Position numbers and translations under genes: made by a program. This document shows positions 22,429 to 28,959 of a stretch of DNA of 38,994 nt, in pieces. The DNA lies in contig CAJNYT010000794.1 of NCBI GenBank assembly GCA_905331485.1, positions 69,240 to 108,233 of the forward strand. The letters run 5' to 3'. Under the pieces are notes generated by a model, which was not told the origin of the DNA, ran no database searches, and saw only the letters and a program-made list of their open reading frames with translations. This DNA comes from Rotaria socialis. Taxonomy: Eukaryota. Within the stretch, counting starts at the first letter, position 1. Each line of letters begins with the position of its first letter.

Positions 22429-25400
22429 ATGCAATCTTACATTGATGACGGTTGCAGAAGTATAAATGCTCTTATTCAATACTCCCAAGAATCATTTTCG
22501 ACGTCACCGGTGTATGATATACATGCGAAACTTTCACAGATCAGAACATTTTACGATGATATTTCATCCCATTGGCATCCTGTTCACGGAACCATGATTA
22601 CCAATGGCTGGTACGTAACGCGAGTTCTCTTACTTGTGCGACGAGTTGCTCGTACTCTAAAGCATATAGTTATCGAATGTCAGCGAAAAAACAAGAGCTT
22701 CGGAGAGCTAACAGGCTTATTAGCCGGTATATATTCTGAGTGCGAGAGCATTCACGTTATTGAGCAAGATTTAACGAATCATAAGTTGAAAGAACTGGGT
22801 CAATTTGAGGCTAAACTACGGTACGAAAAGATACTCTATGAGAGAGAAATTATTATGCGAAGAACCGACACGAAGATTGACATAAATATATTAACGGTGT
22901 ATCTCAAACATTGCATTGCTGACAACTCTTTTCTCTACGTGAACAGACTTGGAGATAGTCTGGACGAATTTCTACCGAATATTGGTGTCATCGCAGCCGT
23001 AGAAAACCGGGAAAATCTAAAACAATGCTTGAATCAAATAAAAATTCCACTGGAATTCTTTTTACTCGAATTTCAACATGATACAAGAACACCAATCGAA
23101 CGAGAGCATTTGCGACGACAGCTTGGTCTTGATAGAAACGTATCTTCACACATTGATGTCAATATATTACATGGGCTCACTAAAAACGACATCGGACTGA
23201 GAGAAAAAAGCAAAAGAACATATATAAGTGATATCTTTAAATGCGAACGGTATATTGTACTGCTTGGAGATCCTGGTAGTGGGAAAAGTACATTTATGCG
23301 CTTCGTCACTCGAAAAACAGCTGTTGATCTACTAAGTTCGATTCAAACAACTGAAAACAAACCAGCTCCATTTGCCCGTATACCAATTTTGATTCATCTA
23401 GCATTATTCGCTAAGGAATGCGCAGAGAAAGAATCATTGTCTATTTTGGACTACATTGAACACGAGAAGAACACACTTGTGCCAGGTGCTGGAGAAATGC
23501 TGAAAGGCGAAATTATGAAGGGTAACTGCATATTGCTGTTCGATGGACTTGACGAAGTTTTAACGTTTGAAAGCCGTTGGAGGGTAATTCACTGTGTGCA
23601 AAGTTTCATCGAACAATTCTCTCTTACTCCAGCGTTCATATCACCTTTTGATAGTTGGGACGCGTCTCTTGAGCATTCTCTCAATAGTGAACTGCCCTCT
23701 GAAACAAACGGAAATCAAATTATAATGACAAGTCGATTCATCGGTTACGACGCCATTTCACTCATAGGTCATGGCATTTCTCATTACATAGTACCACCTT
23801 TAGAGCGAGAAGAAAAATATAAGTTCATCGATCATTGGTACTCTCACGTACTTGAATCTGTTAATAAAGTTTTGCTTTCACACAATGCCAGCGGTTCGTT
23901 CAAAGCAGGCGCTTCTTGGATGGTTTATGCTGACGAATTGAAACAGAGTATTGAAAATAGCGCTGACTTATGTGCCATGACCGCTAATCTTATGCTTCTT
24001 TCAATGATCTGTTTTCAGCAATATCATTCCAAGAGCAAGCAATTGCCCACACTTCGAATTCACCTTTACCAAGAATCTGTTTCGTCCGCTCTTCGTAGTT
24101 ACCGTTTGTCGAAGAAGACGGCAATGCCAGAAGATATAATGCACTGGATTCTGGAAGATGTGGCAGCGTATATGCACAAAGAAGAGTCAAGTGGTGTTAT
24201 AGATCGATTCATGTTAAAACGAGTTTGCGTTCACTCAATGAAAACATTTTATCAAAAGCACAAAAACCCTCACATACCAAAGACACATAATTTGGAGCTT
24301 GAAGCTGACAAATTCGTTGAACTGATTGATCAAAACACTGAGCTCTTAATGGCTCGAGGCCAACAGATTTACGGATTTATCCAGATGACATTTCAAGAAT
24401 ATTTTACTTGTTTACGATTGGTTCGCACTGATGCCGACGGAGAGAATGTTCACGAGGTACTCGAAACATTGCTCGCTCATGTTAGAAAACCTAGATTTTT
24501 GCTTCCTGTTTTGTTAGGTTTAGAATGGCTAAGTTGTAACTGGACCATGGCAGGGTTTAATGCATTTTGTCAGCAACTAGTTTCTCATGATGCCAAGCAT
24601 CAAAACCTTCCCGTCGGAGCTATGTTAATGATCGAAGTATGCAAGAACCTCGATAAGAAGCCAGAAAAATCTATTCTTTATGATGCTTTTGATCAGTTTG
24701 CTCATGCACACTCAAAGCATGAATGGTTTTTCCACGATCCATCTATCGGTGAAGTGTTTTGCCTTGGTCTTAAAGTACTTCCGGCAGCACAATCCAGTGA
24801 ATGGCTATTGTTTTATTTACAAAAAGCTTCCTCATACGAAATAGTTGACTTATGTTTACTCATCCATCAGTACATTATGAGTACTCCAGAGTTTCCAGAA
24901 TGGTTGGATGCAGACGTATGTTTCCTCCTATCTGCATATATTCAGCATGATATAGATAACAATGAATATGCTGTTGAACAATTACTTTGTCTTATTGCTG
25001 ACAGAAAATATGAAAGATTATGGAAAATAAGAGCTAATTCGAGAGGACTCGAAACACTTACGAAAAGCATAGCAGTGAATCAGGATCAGCATCATCCGCT
25101 TATACTAGCCGTTATTATTGCACTACACGGAGGATTATGCGGAAAAGAATTTAATAGTCTATACATCCATCGCGATTCTGCTCTATCCATCTTTATTGCT
25201 GAATATTATGATCAAATTAGTATTTCACATGCTGCAAAAGTTTCTCTCTTGCTGGAAAGATGTAATATAATTATTCGTGAAAACGGAAATGATAGCACAT
25301 CACTTACCACATTAGACGCATTTACCACTCTATTCTGTCTCAAAGGAATACACGATAATAATCTATGCGAAGAATACAAGTTTCACTGTGGATTTTACGC

Positions 25401-28400: not shown

Positions 28401-28959
28401 ACTCTTGGAGCTTCTTTTTGAAGAAGATTTCAGCACAGAAGACAACGAAAGTATTGAACATGAAATTATACCTCTTATCGTTAGTGTAGCTAATCGGCCT
28501 GTACTGGAACAGCTATACCAAAAACTTATGTCAAAATATTCTTCTCAACGTTTACTCGCCGGGCGGCTATTAGTAAAACTAGCGCTATGCGATGCGATTT
28601 CTGCTCAAGAAGCGTGCGATAAAATCTCAACAGCAATAAAAGATCCATTTATCCAGCAGCAAATGAAATGGTTTCATGCTGATAACAAAGATTGTTCAGG
28701 ACACAGCGGTTTAGGTCAAGAAATGCGTCAAATGCTTTTACGACTATCTCTCGCTCACCAAGAACCTCTGACGGATTCTGTTCAACCATGCCATGAACCG
28801 ACGATTATTCTTCACTATGCAAAACAAACCAGAGACCAGGTGGTGTGTCTTTTTACTACAAATCAATTAGTGCATGTAGATGAATCGAGTTACAGCAATG
28901 ACTTAGATAATAGCGATAACGACGATGGTGACACCGGTGAAGATGATATCAGTGATTGA
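22429..28959 (+). CDS. Giant intronless NACHT-domain STAND NTPase (2176 aa). It has a roughly 270-aa N-terminal domain of unknown type, a NACHT NTPase core, and a roughly 1650-aa C-terminal region without canonical LRR/WD40/TPR repeats visible by eye. It ends in an acidic tail ('NDLDNSDNDDGDTGEDDISD').
   Basis: A single 6531-nt ORF starts at ATG 22429. Walker A 'LLGDPGSGKSTFMRF' has GDPGSGKST at nt 23266-23292. NACHT-type Walker B 'CILLFDGLDEV' has DGLDE at nt 23542-23556. The NACHT signature 'IIMTSRFIGYD' has TSR at nt 23728-23736. Spacing between these motifs is as in NACHT/NLR NTPases. A stop lies immediately upstream of the ATG, and an AATAAA sits about 100 nt after the stop. Confidence 0.85.
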   Translation: MQSYIDDGCRSINALIQYSQESFSTSPVYDIHAKLSQIRTFYDDISSHWHPVHGTMITNGWYVTRVLLLVRRVARTLKHIVIECQRKNKSFGELTGLLAGIYSECESIHVIEQDLTNHKLKELGQFEAKLRYEKILYEREIIMRRTDTKIDINILTVYLKHCIADNSFLYVNRLGDSLDEFLPNIGVIAAVENRENLKQCLNQIKIPLEFFLLEFQHDTRTPIEREHLRRQLGLDRNVSSHIDVNILHGLTKNDIGLREKSKRTYISDIFKCERYIVLLGDPGSGKSTFMRFVTRKTAVDLLSSIQTTENKPAPFARIPILIHLALFAKECAEKESLSILDYIEHEKNTLVPGAGEMLKGEIMKGNCILLFDGLDEVLTFESRWRVIHCVQSFIEQFSLTPAFISPFDSWDASLEHSLNSELPSETNGNQIIMTSRFIGYDAISLIGHGISHYIVPPLEREEKYKFIDHWYSHVLESVNKVLLSHNASGSFKAGASWMVYADELKQSIENSADLCAMTANLMLLSMICFQQYHSKSKQLPTLRIHLYQESVSSALRSYRLSKKTAMPEDIMHWILEDVAAYMHKEESSGVIDRFMLKRVCVHSMKTFYQKHKNPHIPKTHNLELEADKFVELIDQNTELLMARGQQIYGFIQMTFQEYFTCLRLVRTDADGENVHEVLETLLAHVRKPRFLLPVLLGLEWLSCNWTMAGFNAFCQQLVSHDAKHQNLPVGAMLMIEVCKNLDKKPEKSILYDAFDQFAHAHSKHEWFFHDPSIGEVFCLGLKVLPAAQSSEWLLFYLQKASSYEIVDLCLLIHQYIMSTPEFPEWLDADVCFLLSAYIQHDIDNNEYAVEQLLCLIADRKYERLWKIRANSRGLETLTKSIAVNQDQHHPLILAVIIALHGGLCGKEFNSLYIHRDSALSIFIAEYYDQISISHAAKVSLLLERCNIIIRENGNDSTSLTTLDAFTTLFCLKGIHDNNLCEEYKFHCGFYAAIRRLKNTLFYLHKRSGCALADFSIDEEYMEKFCACSNAVSKNVLGPIRQCTTNEENTSSISIDAKMLASEYMLAFMDATAVSLASLTLSIDQAQIEIDEKFSLFKWRMPFNIWTDVLCHFIGNCDLPYNVARVIPEWISFLSMIIHSGDHIRICHKDEKYLHKQFMQSIYDHSHIFYYTKDHPFFLISFIRPHRRALFCRFMTTNSLYASSSSSDDWAKKLAYVYLLTECLEDFPNKYDNNVCVFAFLILLLEPILRANRLQYFAWAYFLKVQSERIGTLKNFLRNVSSLFSWAPAIESFDNKSAIHVVEEQRQILAKTLLSYSGPQRDFELYTVCISLSHLATILFEDDNALHASLIKEIQCSALEISTPFYKVHTLNYCIDFNSRKFLESLPYLPYFLMAEQFYQHDTYFCDAIKRLNCLLHDSNNTEDRQAIGEALLPLKCFRKYILDNVDKFQRNNTSFMLSHALRMKSPVLHFHLENTDHFWSGNPSNSIVTCHTCLYLALLAIDAQSVLDEIEEQPIITLDLSSIKQKLKPSGYPPCLSKSQAHSITEYLENTFQSSKLDVILRALDRFDKANIDAYPYIRQWLQYRESPDLKLFAWHASILLPIENALQVSILVDIFQSDNDDLLKKARDNRFTISLSANPSLISNMTERMTQAFHCQTSPFPFSFLKRLVIDRIELLQQLFQAEQRLIYEKLEWDHTEYVLEGTQHEEQQIWGRLQRDPSILRQFVFSESLEPLAQAFVLEINAVLDGTNIGLLSTITDRCLYLLSLKESFEPFHDSMSNKLHMLQECTNMEERCRNFVWKIILASNQDSMKGRLVLHKCIRFYCNKIWLLTEYNINIIQKFTTESPESDLREIVTIIIDDLAIRTAYLNDESTKEYRNKLDELNDTDTIQYDQATKVEQIADYINKHQSTLLSIFVKDFIRSLNVANKGYVEQSRATIYGQIAEHLCKLSTRNFHMAIREIPQGELHFKELLYKIKCYEQLAYYGELTAQLLELLFEEDFSTEDNESIEHEIIPLIVSVANRPVLEQLYQKLMSKYSSQRLLAGRLLVKLALCDAISAQEACDKISTAIKDPFIQQQMKWFHADNKDCSGHSGLGQEMRQMLLRLSLAHQEPLTDSVQPCHEPTIILHYAKQTRDQVVCLFTTNQLVHVDESSYSNDLDNSDNDDGDTGEDDISD

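Follow-up and report, generated by a model that had tools for sequence, protein, structure and literature searches.

A stretch of 38,994 nucleotides from the bdelloid rotifer Rotaria socialis (assembly GCA_905331485.1, contig CAJNYT010000794.1, positions 69,240 to 108,233 of the forward strand; hereafter the window) harbors a gene for a STAND-class NTPase with a NACHT domain. The gene, which is real and intact, consists of a complete single-exon coding sequence of 2176 codons plus stop codon at positions 22429..28959 of the window; all of its elements lie on the plus strand. The product of this open reading frame (ORF) is composed of an N-terminal helical domain, a conserved linker, a NACHT module, and a long C-terminal region which is predicted to form an α-solenoid, and it is probably a molecular switch derived from a bacterial NACHT protein. 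Along its entire length, the ORF product shows 100% identity with a 2176-residue GenBank entry termed 'unnamed protein product [Rotaria socialis]', for which UniRef uses the name 'NACHT domain-containing protein'. The identical protein is encoded on eight R. socialis contigs; in six of the six contigs shown, its gene is annotated with one exon of 6531 nucleotides. Because of the identical annotated protein and the single-exon annotation, the gene model can be equated with the ORF, in agreement with an initial annotation of the window, made from the letters alone, which had reported a single-exon ORF of 2176 amino acids (aa). In comparison with a 68%-identical ortholog, the ratio of nonsynonymous to synonymous substitution rates (dN/dS) is 0.28 at a dS of 0.69, with values of 0.25-0.36 across all regions of the gene, and the GC content at third codon positions (GC3) is 0.335, which is inside the range of the neighboring host genes. 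This dN/dS and the host-matching codon composition mark the gene as an old one that has been domesticated and is functional.

The NACHT module is preceded by a linker (aa 201-262; 23029..23214) which was delimited in the family alignment and contains the motif IEREHLRRQLG. No variation occurs among the rotifer proteins in its columns P207, D218, E224, R225, and R229, and the alignment of several bacterial relatives already begins at aa 196-223. The NACHT nucleotide-binding domain (aa 263-455; 23215..23793), defined by motifs and family alignment, contains a Walker A motif, GDPGSGKST (aa 280-288; 23266-23292), which agrees with the P-loop consensus GxxxxGK[ST] and in which G280, P282, S284, and K286 do not vary within the family, a Walker B motif, ILLFDGLDE (aa 368-376; 23530-23556), and a sensor-1 motif, IIMTSR (23719-23736), whose TSR triplet corresponds to aa 434-436. 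The presence and the order of these three motifs had been recognized correctly at the outset. Residues D372-G-L-D-E376 fit the D[GAS]hDE signature and are conserved in the rotifer proteins and their bacterial relatives; in this signature, the Mg-binding aspartate is followed by a small residue and then by two acidic residues, which sets NACHT proteins apart from other STAND proteins (Kibby et al., bioRxiv 10.1101/2022.07.19.500537). An insertion of about 30 aa is located between Walker B and the sensor-1 strand. The helical and winged-helix domains of the module (aa 456-735; 23794..24633) were assigned by the family alignment and by a module profile designated A4, and include the winged-helix motif YGFIQMTFQEYF (aa 648-661; 24370-24411), which aligns to YSFIHMTFQEFF of NLRP3. 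Bacterial relatives could be aligned up to about aa 700-760 of the R. socialis protein. As the module thus reaches to about aa 735, the tail following it comprises about 1440 aa and not the 1650 aa originally given.

Several homologs, which align with the R. socialis protein over the full length at 22-39% identity, pass the cutoff of the Pfam NACHT model (PF05729) with 26.8-35.5 bits. Profile A4, which was built from rotifer and bacterial sequences, matches NLRP3 (6e-5), NLRC4 (2e-4), and NLRP1; its E-values to animal NLRs range from 6e-5 to 8e-3, and the match runs through the YxFxHxTFQE[YF]F motif. Since paralogs exceed the Pfam cutoff, since the D[GAS]hDE, TSR, and winged-helix motifs are present, and since the profile matches NLRP3 and NLRC4, the sequence identifies the protein as a STAND-class NACHT NTPase, an assignment made at the level of the family only. 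Scans of the query as a single sequence against NCBIfam, PDB, and PADLOC yielded sub-threshold P-loop matches only. The proposed general layout, a STAND/NACHT NTPase with an N-terminal domain, a NACHT domain, and a long repeat region, is borne out by these results and by those described below.

The region downstream of the NACHT module (aa 736-2110; 24634..28758) is presumed to have a sensory or autoinhibitory function and was characterized by structure prediction, by Foldseek, and by Pfam matches of paralogs. An AlphaFold2 model of aa 977-2176 based on 21 family sequences is all-helical, with about 65 helices, a mean predicted local distance difference test score (pLDDT) of 66, and stretches with scores of 85-90. 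When it was compared with PDB using Foldseek, 30 matches with E<1e-3 were obtained, all of them HEAT/ARM solenoids and mostly with a probability of 0.9-1.0; they include CAND1, mTOR, SF3B1, importin-beta, transportin, huntingtin, RRP12, and beta-catenin. In paralogs, the Pfam domains HEAT, HEAT_2, and Arm were matched at or near the cutoff in segments corresponding to aa 1771-1857 and 1996-2074 of the query. LRRs were not found in Pfam scans of the query and its paralogs, and a self-comparison of the C-terminus revealed no internal repeats that were significant at the sequence level. Rotifer homologs are aligned along the whole length of the protein; bacterial matches are confined to aa ~260-700. 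A hidden Markov model (HMM) of the family C-terminus finds matches close to the C-terminal ends of long bacterial NACHT proteins, namely in P0012 (1.3e-7; such designations are our own protein identifiers), in P0035 with two matches in corresponding order, and more weakly in P0019 and P0022. The similarity between the family C-terminus and the HEAT region of Nostoc proteins is weak according to hhalign (probability 15-19%). From the model and these matches, we conclude that the C-terminal tail is most plausibly a degenerate HEAT/ARM-like solenoid. The usual partner domains had been thought to be absent and both ends of the protein to be novel domain types, which does not apply to the C-terminus, as a HEAT-type sensor class has previously been described in bacterial NACHT proteins (Kibby et al., bioRxiv 10.1101/2022.07.19.500537). 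The solenoid is followed by a low-confidence and probably disordered segment (aa 2111-2176; 28759..28956), recognized by its pLDDT, which is <50 across residues 1135-1200 of the model, and by its composition. As had been noted before, this tail is acidic: its 66 residues contain 16 D/E vs 2 K/R, and it ends in the acidic run SYSNDLDNSDNDDGDTGEDDISD.

For the N-terminal ~200 aa (22429..23028), which were analyzed by profile search and AlphaFold2, the claim of novelty stands, since this part alone belongs to no established family. It is a predicted helical domain, conserved across the rotifer family and restricted to it, which occupies the slot where the bacterial relatives have effectors and which is presumed to function as effector or adaptor. 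When 1.84 billion cluster representatives were searched exhaustively by HMMER with a profile of this domain, 52 clusters were retrieved, all of which score as family members, and nearly all of those that reach far enough have a NACHT domain directly downstream. The lone exception to this pairing is P0126, a protein of 574 aa in which two PDZ domains are followed by a fragment of the N-terminal domain at residues 384-549; this fusion may be an artefact of a fused or truncated gene model, or it may be a real alternative architecture. A relationship to the NNH2 domain (PF22734) of the Nostoc relatives, of which the rotifer domain could have been a diverged version, was rejected, as the hhalign comparison of rotifer and bacterial N-termini gave a probability of 1%; Pfam scans gave no NNH2 match, and the exhaustive profile search retrieved no protein of the Nostoc type. 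HMMER alignments that stretch into the N-terminus were not supported by a search with the N-terminus only. The N-terminal profile found no match among PDB sequences. In two paralogs, SesA was matched with E-values of 0.007 and 0.025 (15-17 bits, below the cutoff of 26.3) at residues 3-81, which align to positions 3-78 of the SesA model, and in two other paralogs DUF7032 was matched at aa ~3-80 with E-values of 1.7e-5 and 0.003, also below the cutoff. SesA has been described as kin of the HeLo-like and MLKL four-helix-bundle execution domains (PMC9815663). We regard the similarity of the N-terminal domain to SesA and DUF7032 as a hint rather than a finding.

Homologs were evaluated on the basis of the best 120 matches. 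Among these, all named family members are from bdelloids, i.e., R. socialis, R. sordida, Rotaria sp. Silwood1 and Silwood2, Adineta vaga, A. ricciae, and A. steineri, and all other matches that carry an organism name are bacterial. R. socialis itself has at least three paralog clusters of the family. The best matches in GTDB belong to Chloroflexota, Saprospiraceae, Myxococcota, Acidobacteriota, and cyanobacteria and show 22-27% identity. The rotifer profile matches a Roseiflexus protein (P0172) with 338 bits (1e-95), and the insertion in front of sensor-1 is common to P0172, the TIR-bearing P0012, and the CHAT-bearing P0013, and is absent from the Nostoc type. P0012 is considered to be bacterial because RND efflux genes adjoin its gene. 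The effectors carried by the bacterial relatives of the family are TIR, CHAT, SIR2, or caspase domains. A neighbor-joining tree of 73 NACHT modules recovers the rotifer proteins as a single clade in 100 of 100 bootstraps. The bacterial nearest relatives, the shared insertion, the order of the C-terminal segments, and the monophyly of the bdelloid proteins support the view that the family was acquired from bacteria once, in the distant past, and then expanded within the bdelloids, as far as can be judged from sequence comparison. Of the origins considered initially, horizontal acquisition and lineage-specific expansion are thus in line with the bacterial relatives, the rotifer monophyly, and the several paralogs per genome, and a retro-origin found no support.

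The copies of the family that were checked are mostly intronless; the A. vaga homolog (9594 nucleotides for 2367 aa) seems to contain introns, which it seems to have gained. In Rotaria sp. Silwood1 (L011), two intronless paralogs of 2345 and 2270 aa are arranged in tandem (1-7722 and 10001-16813) near the end of a 690-kb contig, and the gene of P0005 is likewise located near a contig end. These positions may hint at subtelomeric locations of the family. Foreign genes of bdelloids have been reported to be subtelomeric. In the P0170 cluster from Adineta steineri, some members have a length of 3425-3476 aa, compared with a norm of ~2000-2400 aa, which points to tandem copies fused together or to additional domains in some of the Adineta gene models.

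The NACHT gene is surrounded by intron-bearing genes of animal type. On the minus strand, the window contains an NHL-repeat ORF, a MACPF/perforin exon, and exons of the major vault protein (4447-5400, 6129-6692, and 11027-13514). The major vault protein gene and other neighbors are split over several ORFs, as the initial annotation had stated in describing the former as intron-bearing. As a connection to immunity is common among MACPF and NHL proteins, the region may be enriched for defense-type genes. Directly upstream of the NACHT gene and divergent to it lies a gene for a protein with ankyrin repeats and an NAD:arginine ADP-ribosyltransferase (ART) domain (19025-20266, minus strand), annotated with 404 aa and contained in a single ORF; it appears to be intronless and might likewise be of conflict type or acquired. 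An F-box gene is found in its place in one of the R. socialis assemblies (L004). A conserved gene partner of the NACHT gene was rejected, as the neighbors are not the same from paralog to paralog, nor even from one R. socialis assembly to another.

Two tandem arrays are located 300-600 nucleotides before the ATG of the NACHT gene, a G-rich 25-bp repeat with 8.4 copies of GGGGTACCTAGTGTGGGTGTGGGGA (21800-22008) and nine copies of TACCGCAA (22056-22129). The homology between assemblies stops inside the 25-bp array, which points to a structural variant or an assembly breakpoint. A direct repeat of 214 nucleotides with 98% identity (18276-18489 and 29462-29675; 11.2 kb apart) brackets the ART gene and the NACHT gene and could be a dispersed repeat or the remnant of a mobile element or a duplication. 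Two features close to the NACHT coding sequence were read from the sequence. A pyrimidine tract followed by AG (ttttcttcctatag; 22414..22428, plus strand) abuts the ATG and may be a putative splice or trans-splice acceptor; its last three bases form an in-frame TAG stop codon. A candidate polyadenylation signal, AATAAA (29056..29061, plus strand), which is presumably used, is located about 100 nucleotides past the stop codon. Both features accord with the domestication of the gene.

Among known systems, the bacterial NACHT (bNACHT) proteins with HEAT-type sensors, NLR-related proteins with anti-phage function, are closest in sequence to the rotifer family (Kibby et al., bioRxiv 10.1101/2022.07.19.500537). 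Common to both are the Walker A motif GDPGSGK[ST], the Walker B motif D[GAS]hDE, the TSR motif, the winged-helix motif FxHxTFQEY, and a layout consisting of a variable N-terminal domain, the NACHT domain, and a helical-repeat C-terminus; the insertion of about 30 aa and the C-terminal segments are shared with one bNACHT subgroup (the Roseiflexus, TIR, and CHAT forms). The rotifer proteins differ from bNACHT proteins by their animal host, in which an anti-phage function is inapplicable, by an N-terminal domain that is neither a bacterial effector nor NNH2, and by a solenoid that is two to three times longer than that of the Nostoc type. No PADLOC defense model matched the query; only the TIR domain of the bacterial P0012 matched ThsB.

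With animal NLRs such as NLRP3, NLRC4, and NLRP1, the rotifer family shares the NACHT module, the motif YxFxHxTFQE[FY]F, and presumably the logic of effector, switch, and repeat sensor. In contrast to these NLRs, the rotifer protein lacks LRR, PYD, and CARD domains in Pfam scans and has a HEAT/ARM-like sensor, the similarity is remote, and the histidine of the winged-helix motif is replaced by glutamine in the query. In the strict sense, an NLR combines a nucleotide-binding domain with LRRs, and the all-helical C-terminus places the protein outside this definition. The C-terminal repeats of fungal NLRs are mostly ANK, TPR, or WD40. A resemblance exists to those fungal NLRs in which an all-helical N-terminal domain of the SesA, HeLo-like, or Goodbye type directly precedes the NACHT domain (PMC9815663), although the SesA similarity is weak and sub-threshold and the poor N-terminal model does not allow folds to be compared.

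Among animals, bdelloid rotifers are the classic example of massive horizontal gene transfer. With other acquired genes of bdelloids, the NACHT genes have in common non-metazoan nearest relatives, a frequent lack of introns, expansion within the lineage, and adaptation to the composition of the host (PMC11258130, PMC4632278). Phylogenetic analyses have led to the proposal that NACHT modules were transferred from prokaryotes to eukaryotes (Kibby et al., bioRxiv 10.1101/2022.07.19.500537). In the literature on horizontal transfer in bdelloids that was searched, a NACHT family is not mentioned among the acquired genes, and no description of the family was found in the literature on bdelloids or Adineta in combination with NACHT, NLR, or STAND, to which Nowell et al. 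2024 and Kaur et al. 2021 belong.

In our opinion, the data are best explained, with good probability, by a STAND switch of the NACHT clade that stems from a bacterial ancestor with a long helical-repeat C-terminus and that likely serves in surveillance or defense. On the evidence of the sequence comparisons, an ancestral bacterial NACHT protein with such a C-terminus entered the bdelloid lineage once and long ago and was subsequently duplicated. The HEAT/ARM-like solenoid of about 1400 aa would hold the NACHT module in the closed, ADP-bound state and would also bind the trigger, upon which nucleotide exchange and oligomerization via the NACHT and winged-helix module would take place. Oligomerization would cluster the family-specific N-terminal helical domains, and these could act as output either in the form of a membrane-attacking bundle of the SesA/HeLo/MLKL type or as an adaptor that recruits other proteins. 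NLRs, Avs, and bacterial NACHT proteins served as the models for these proposed steps (Kibby et al., bioRxiv 10.1101/2022.07.19.500537). Taken by itself, a role in immunity or intracellular surveillance, which is suggested by the context of the family, appears somewhat more plausible than its opposite. A further-reaching idea is that bdelloids replaced the bacterial enzymatic effector by a new helical, possibly membrane-attacking domain and then expanded the protein into a family of intracellular immune receptors independent of the canonical metazoan NLRs; we consider this idea rather doubtful.

A number of results count against the bacterial-derived switch. The query alone matches Pfam NACHT only with E=0.013 and 15.8 bits, below the cutoff of 26.7, and over the first 95 of the 167 model positions, likely because the insertion of about 30 aa precedes sensor-1; consequently, the initial designation as an unambiguous NACHT protein holds for NACHT and not for unambiguous. 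A full-length profile made from rotifer sequences only retrieved no NLR from PDB at E<0.1 and instead generic P-loop proteins such as AK8 and PCH2. In the winged-helix motif, the query has glutamine instead of the histidine (FIQMTFQEYF), a replacement seen otherwise only in P0002 and P0003, its closest relatives, whereas paralogs and bacteria have FLHLTFQEYF and NLRP3 has FIHMTFQEFF; since this histidine is expected to contact the ADP phosphate, as in NLRC4 and NLRP3, the regulation may differ in the subclade of the query. The AlphaFold2 model of the N-terminus (nine sequences) consists entirely of helices but has a pLDDT of only 45, for which reason the fold search with this model (best E-value 0.3, no match) is uninformative, and the SesA/DUF7032 similarity is sub-threshold and confined to paralogs, the query being without match. 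As to the C-terminus, the Pfam scan of the query found no HEAT match, and the TM-scores to HEAT proteins are low (0.1-0.2), which is to be expected for long and flexible superhelices and a model of medium confidence. Finally, the grouping of the rotifer sequences with long bacterial proteins in the tree mentioned above is weak (bootstrap 19-40%), and the direction of transfer rests on taxonomic distribution, as the identity to the bacterial proteins is only 22-27%.

One alternative to a defense function is that the protein is a non-immune STAND scaffold involved in housekeeping or signaling, comparable to TEP1, NPHP3, and NWD1, whose solenoid binds endogenous partners. HEAT/ARM solenoids are generic protein-binding scaffolds, Pfam scans found no recognized death or enzymatic effector, and no variation was seen, as the protein is identical on eight of eight R. 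socialis contigs, all of which would suit a scaffold. This assumption is unlikely in our view, as the family is multi-copy, lineage-restricted, and sometimes arranged in tandem, its dN/dS of 0.28 is moderately relaxed, and the bacterial relatives carry the conflict-type effectors TIR, CHAT, SIR2, and caspase.

The second alternative concerns the origin. A native animal NLR-like gene, inherited vertically, could have diverged fast and lost its introns, so that the similarity to bacteria would reflect an ancient shared NACHT ancestry. Against this assumption, non-bdelloid eukaryotes are absent from the listed matches with an organism name; the rotifer profile reaches 1e-95 on Roseiflexus and retrieves no animal NLR from PDB at E<0.1; and the insertion of about 30 aa together with the corresponding C-terminal segments is common to the rotifer proteins and one bacterial subgroup. 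The identity of just 22-27% to bacterial NACHT modules, the host-like codon composition, the apparent introns of the A. vaga homolog, and the weak bootstrap of the sister group fit a native gene, which we nonetheless hold to be quite improbable.

The possibilities of pseudogenization, misassembly, or contamination with bacterial DNA are effectively refuted by a 6.5-kb open frame that is no chance event in DNA of 38% GC, by the identical protein on eight contigs with flanking animal genes, and by the dN/dS of 0.28 and the host-like GC3, even though P0002, a 68%-identical ortholog on an ENA metagenome contig of 2x coverage, has two C-terminal frameshifts. The C-terminal part of P0002 (L008, 6377-7728) is spread over three reading frames, which is due either to sequencing error at low coverage or to a pseudogenized copy.

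The elements of the preferred interpretation, a switch acquired from bacteria, are all known already: the NACHT annotation in UniProt, the combination of NACHT and HEAT in bacteria, the repeated transfer of NACHT genes from bacteria to eukaryotes, and the pervasive horizontal transfer into bdelloids. The proteins therefore do not represent a new protein class, and their architecture follows the known plan of effector, switch, and repeat region, in which the N-terminal domain is the sole element that matches no established family. The family provides a concrete and fairly clean example of a whole bacterial NACHT module with its solenoid that has apparently been kept, domesticated, maintained by purifying selection, and expanded in an animal, the effector end alone having been exchanged. 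It thus offers a workable system for studying the exchange of output domains on a conserved switch, and for asking whether acquired receptors, beyond biosynthetic genes, are deployed by bdelloids against pathogens. If the idea of an effector replacement were true, the family would document that an animal has built part of its set of innate immune receptors from a bacterial immune gene acquired by horizontal transfer.

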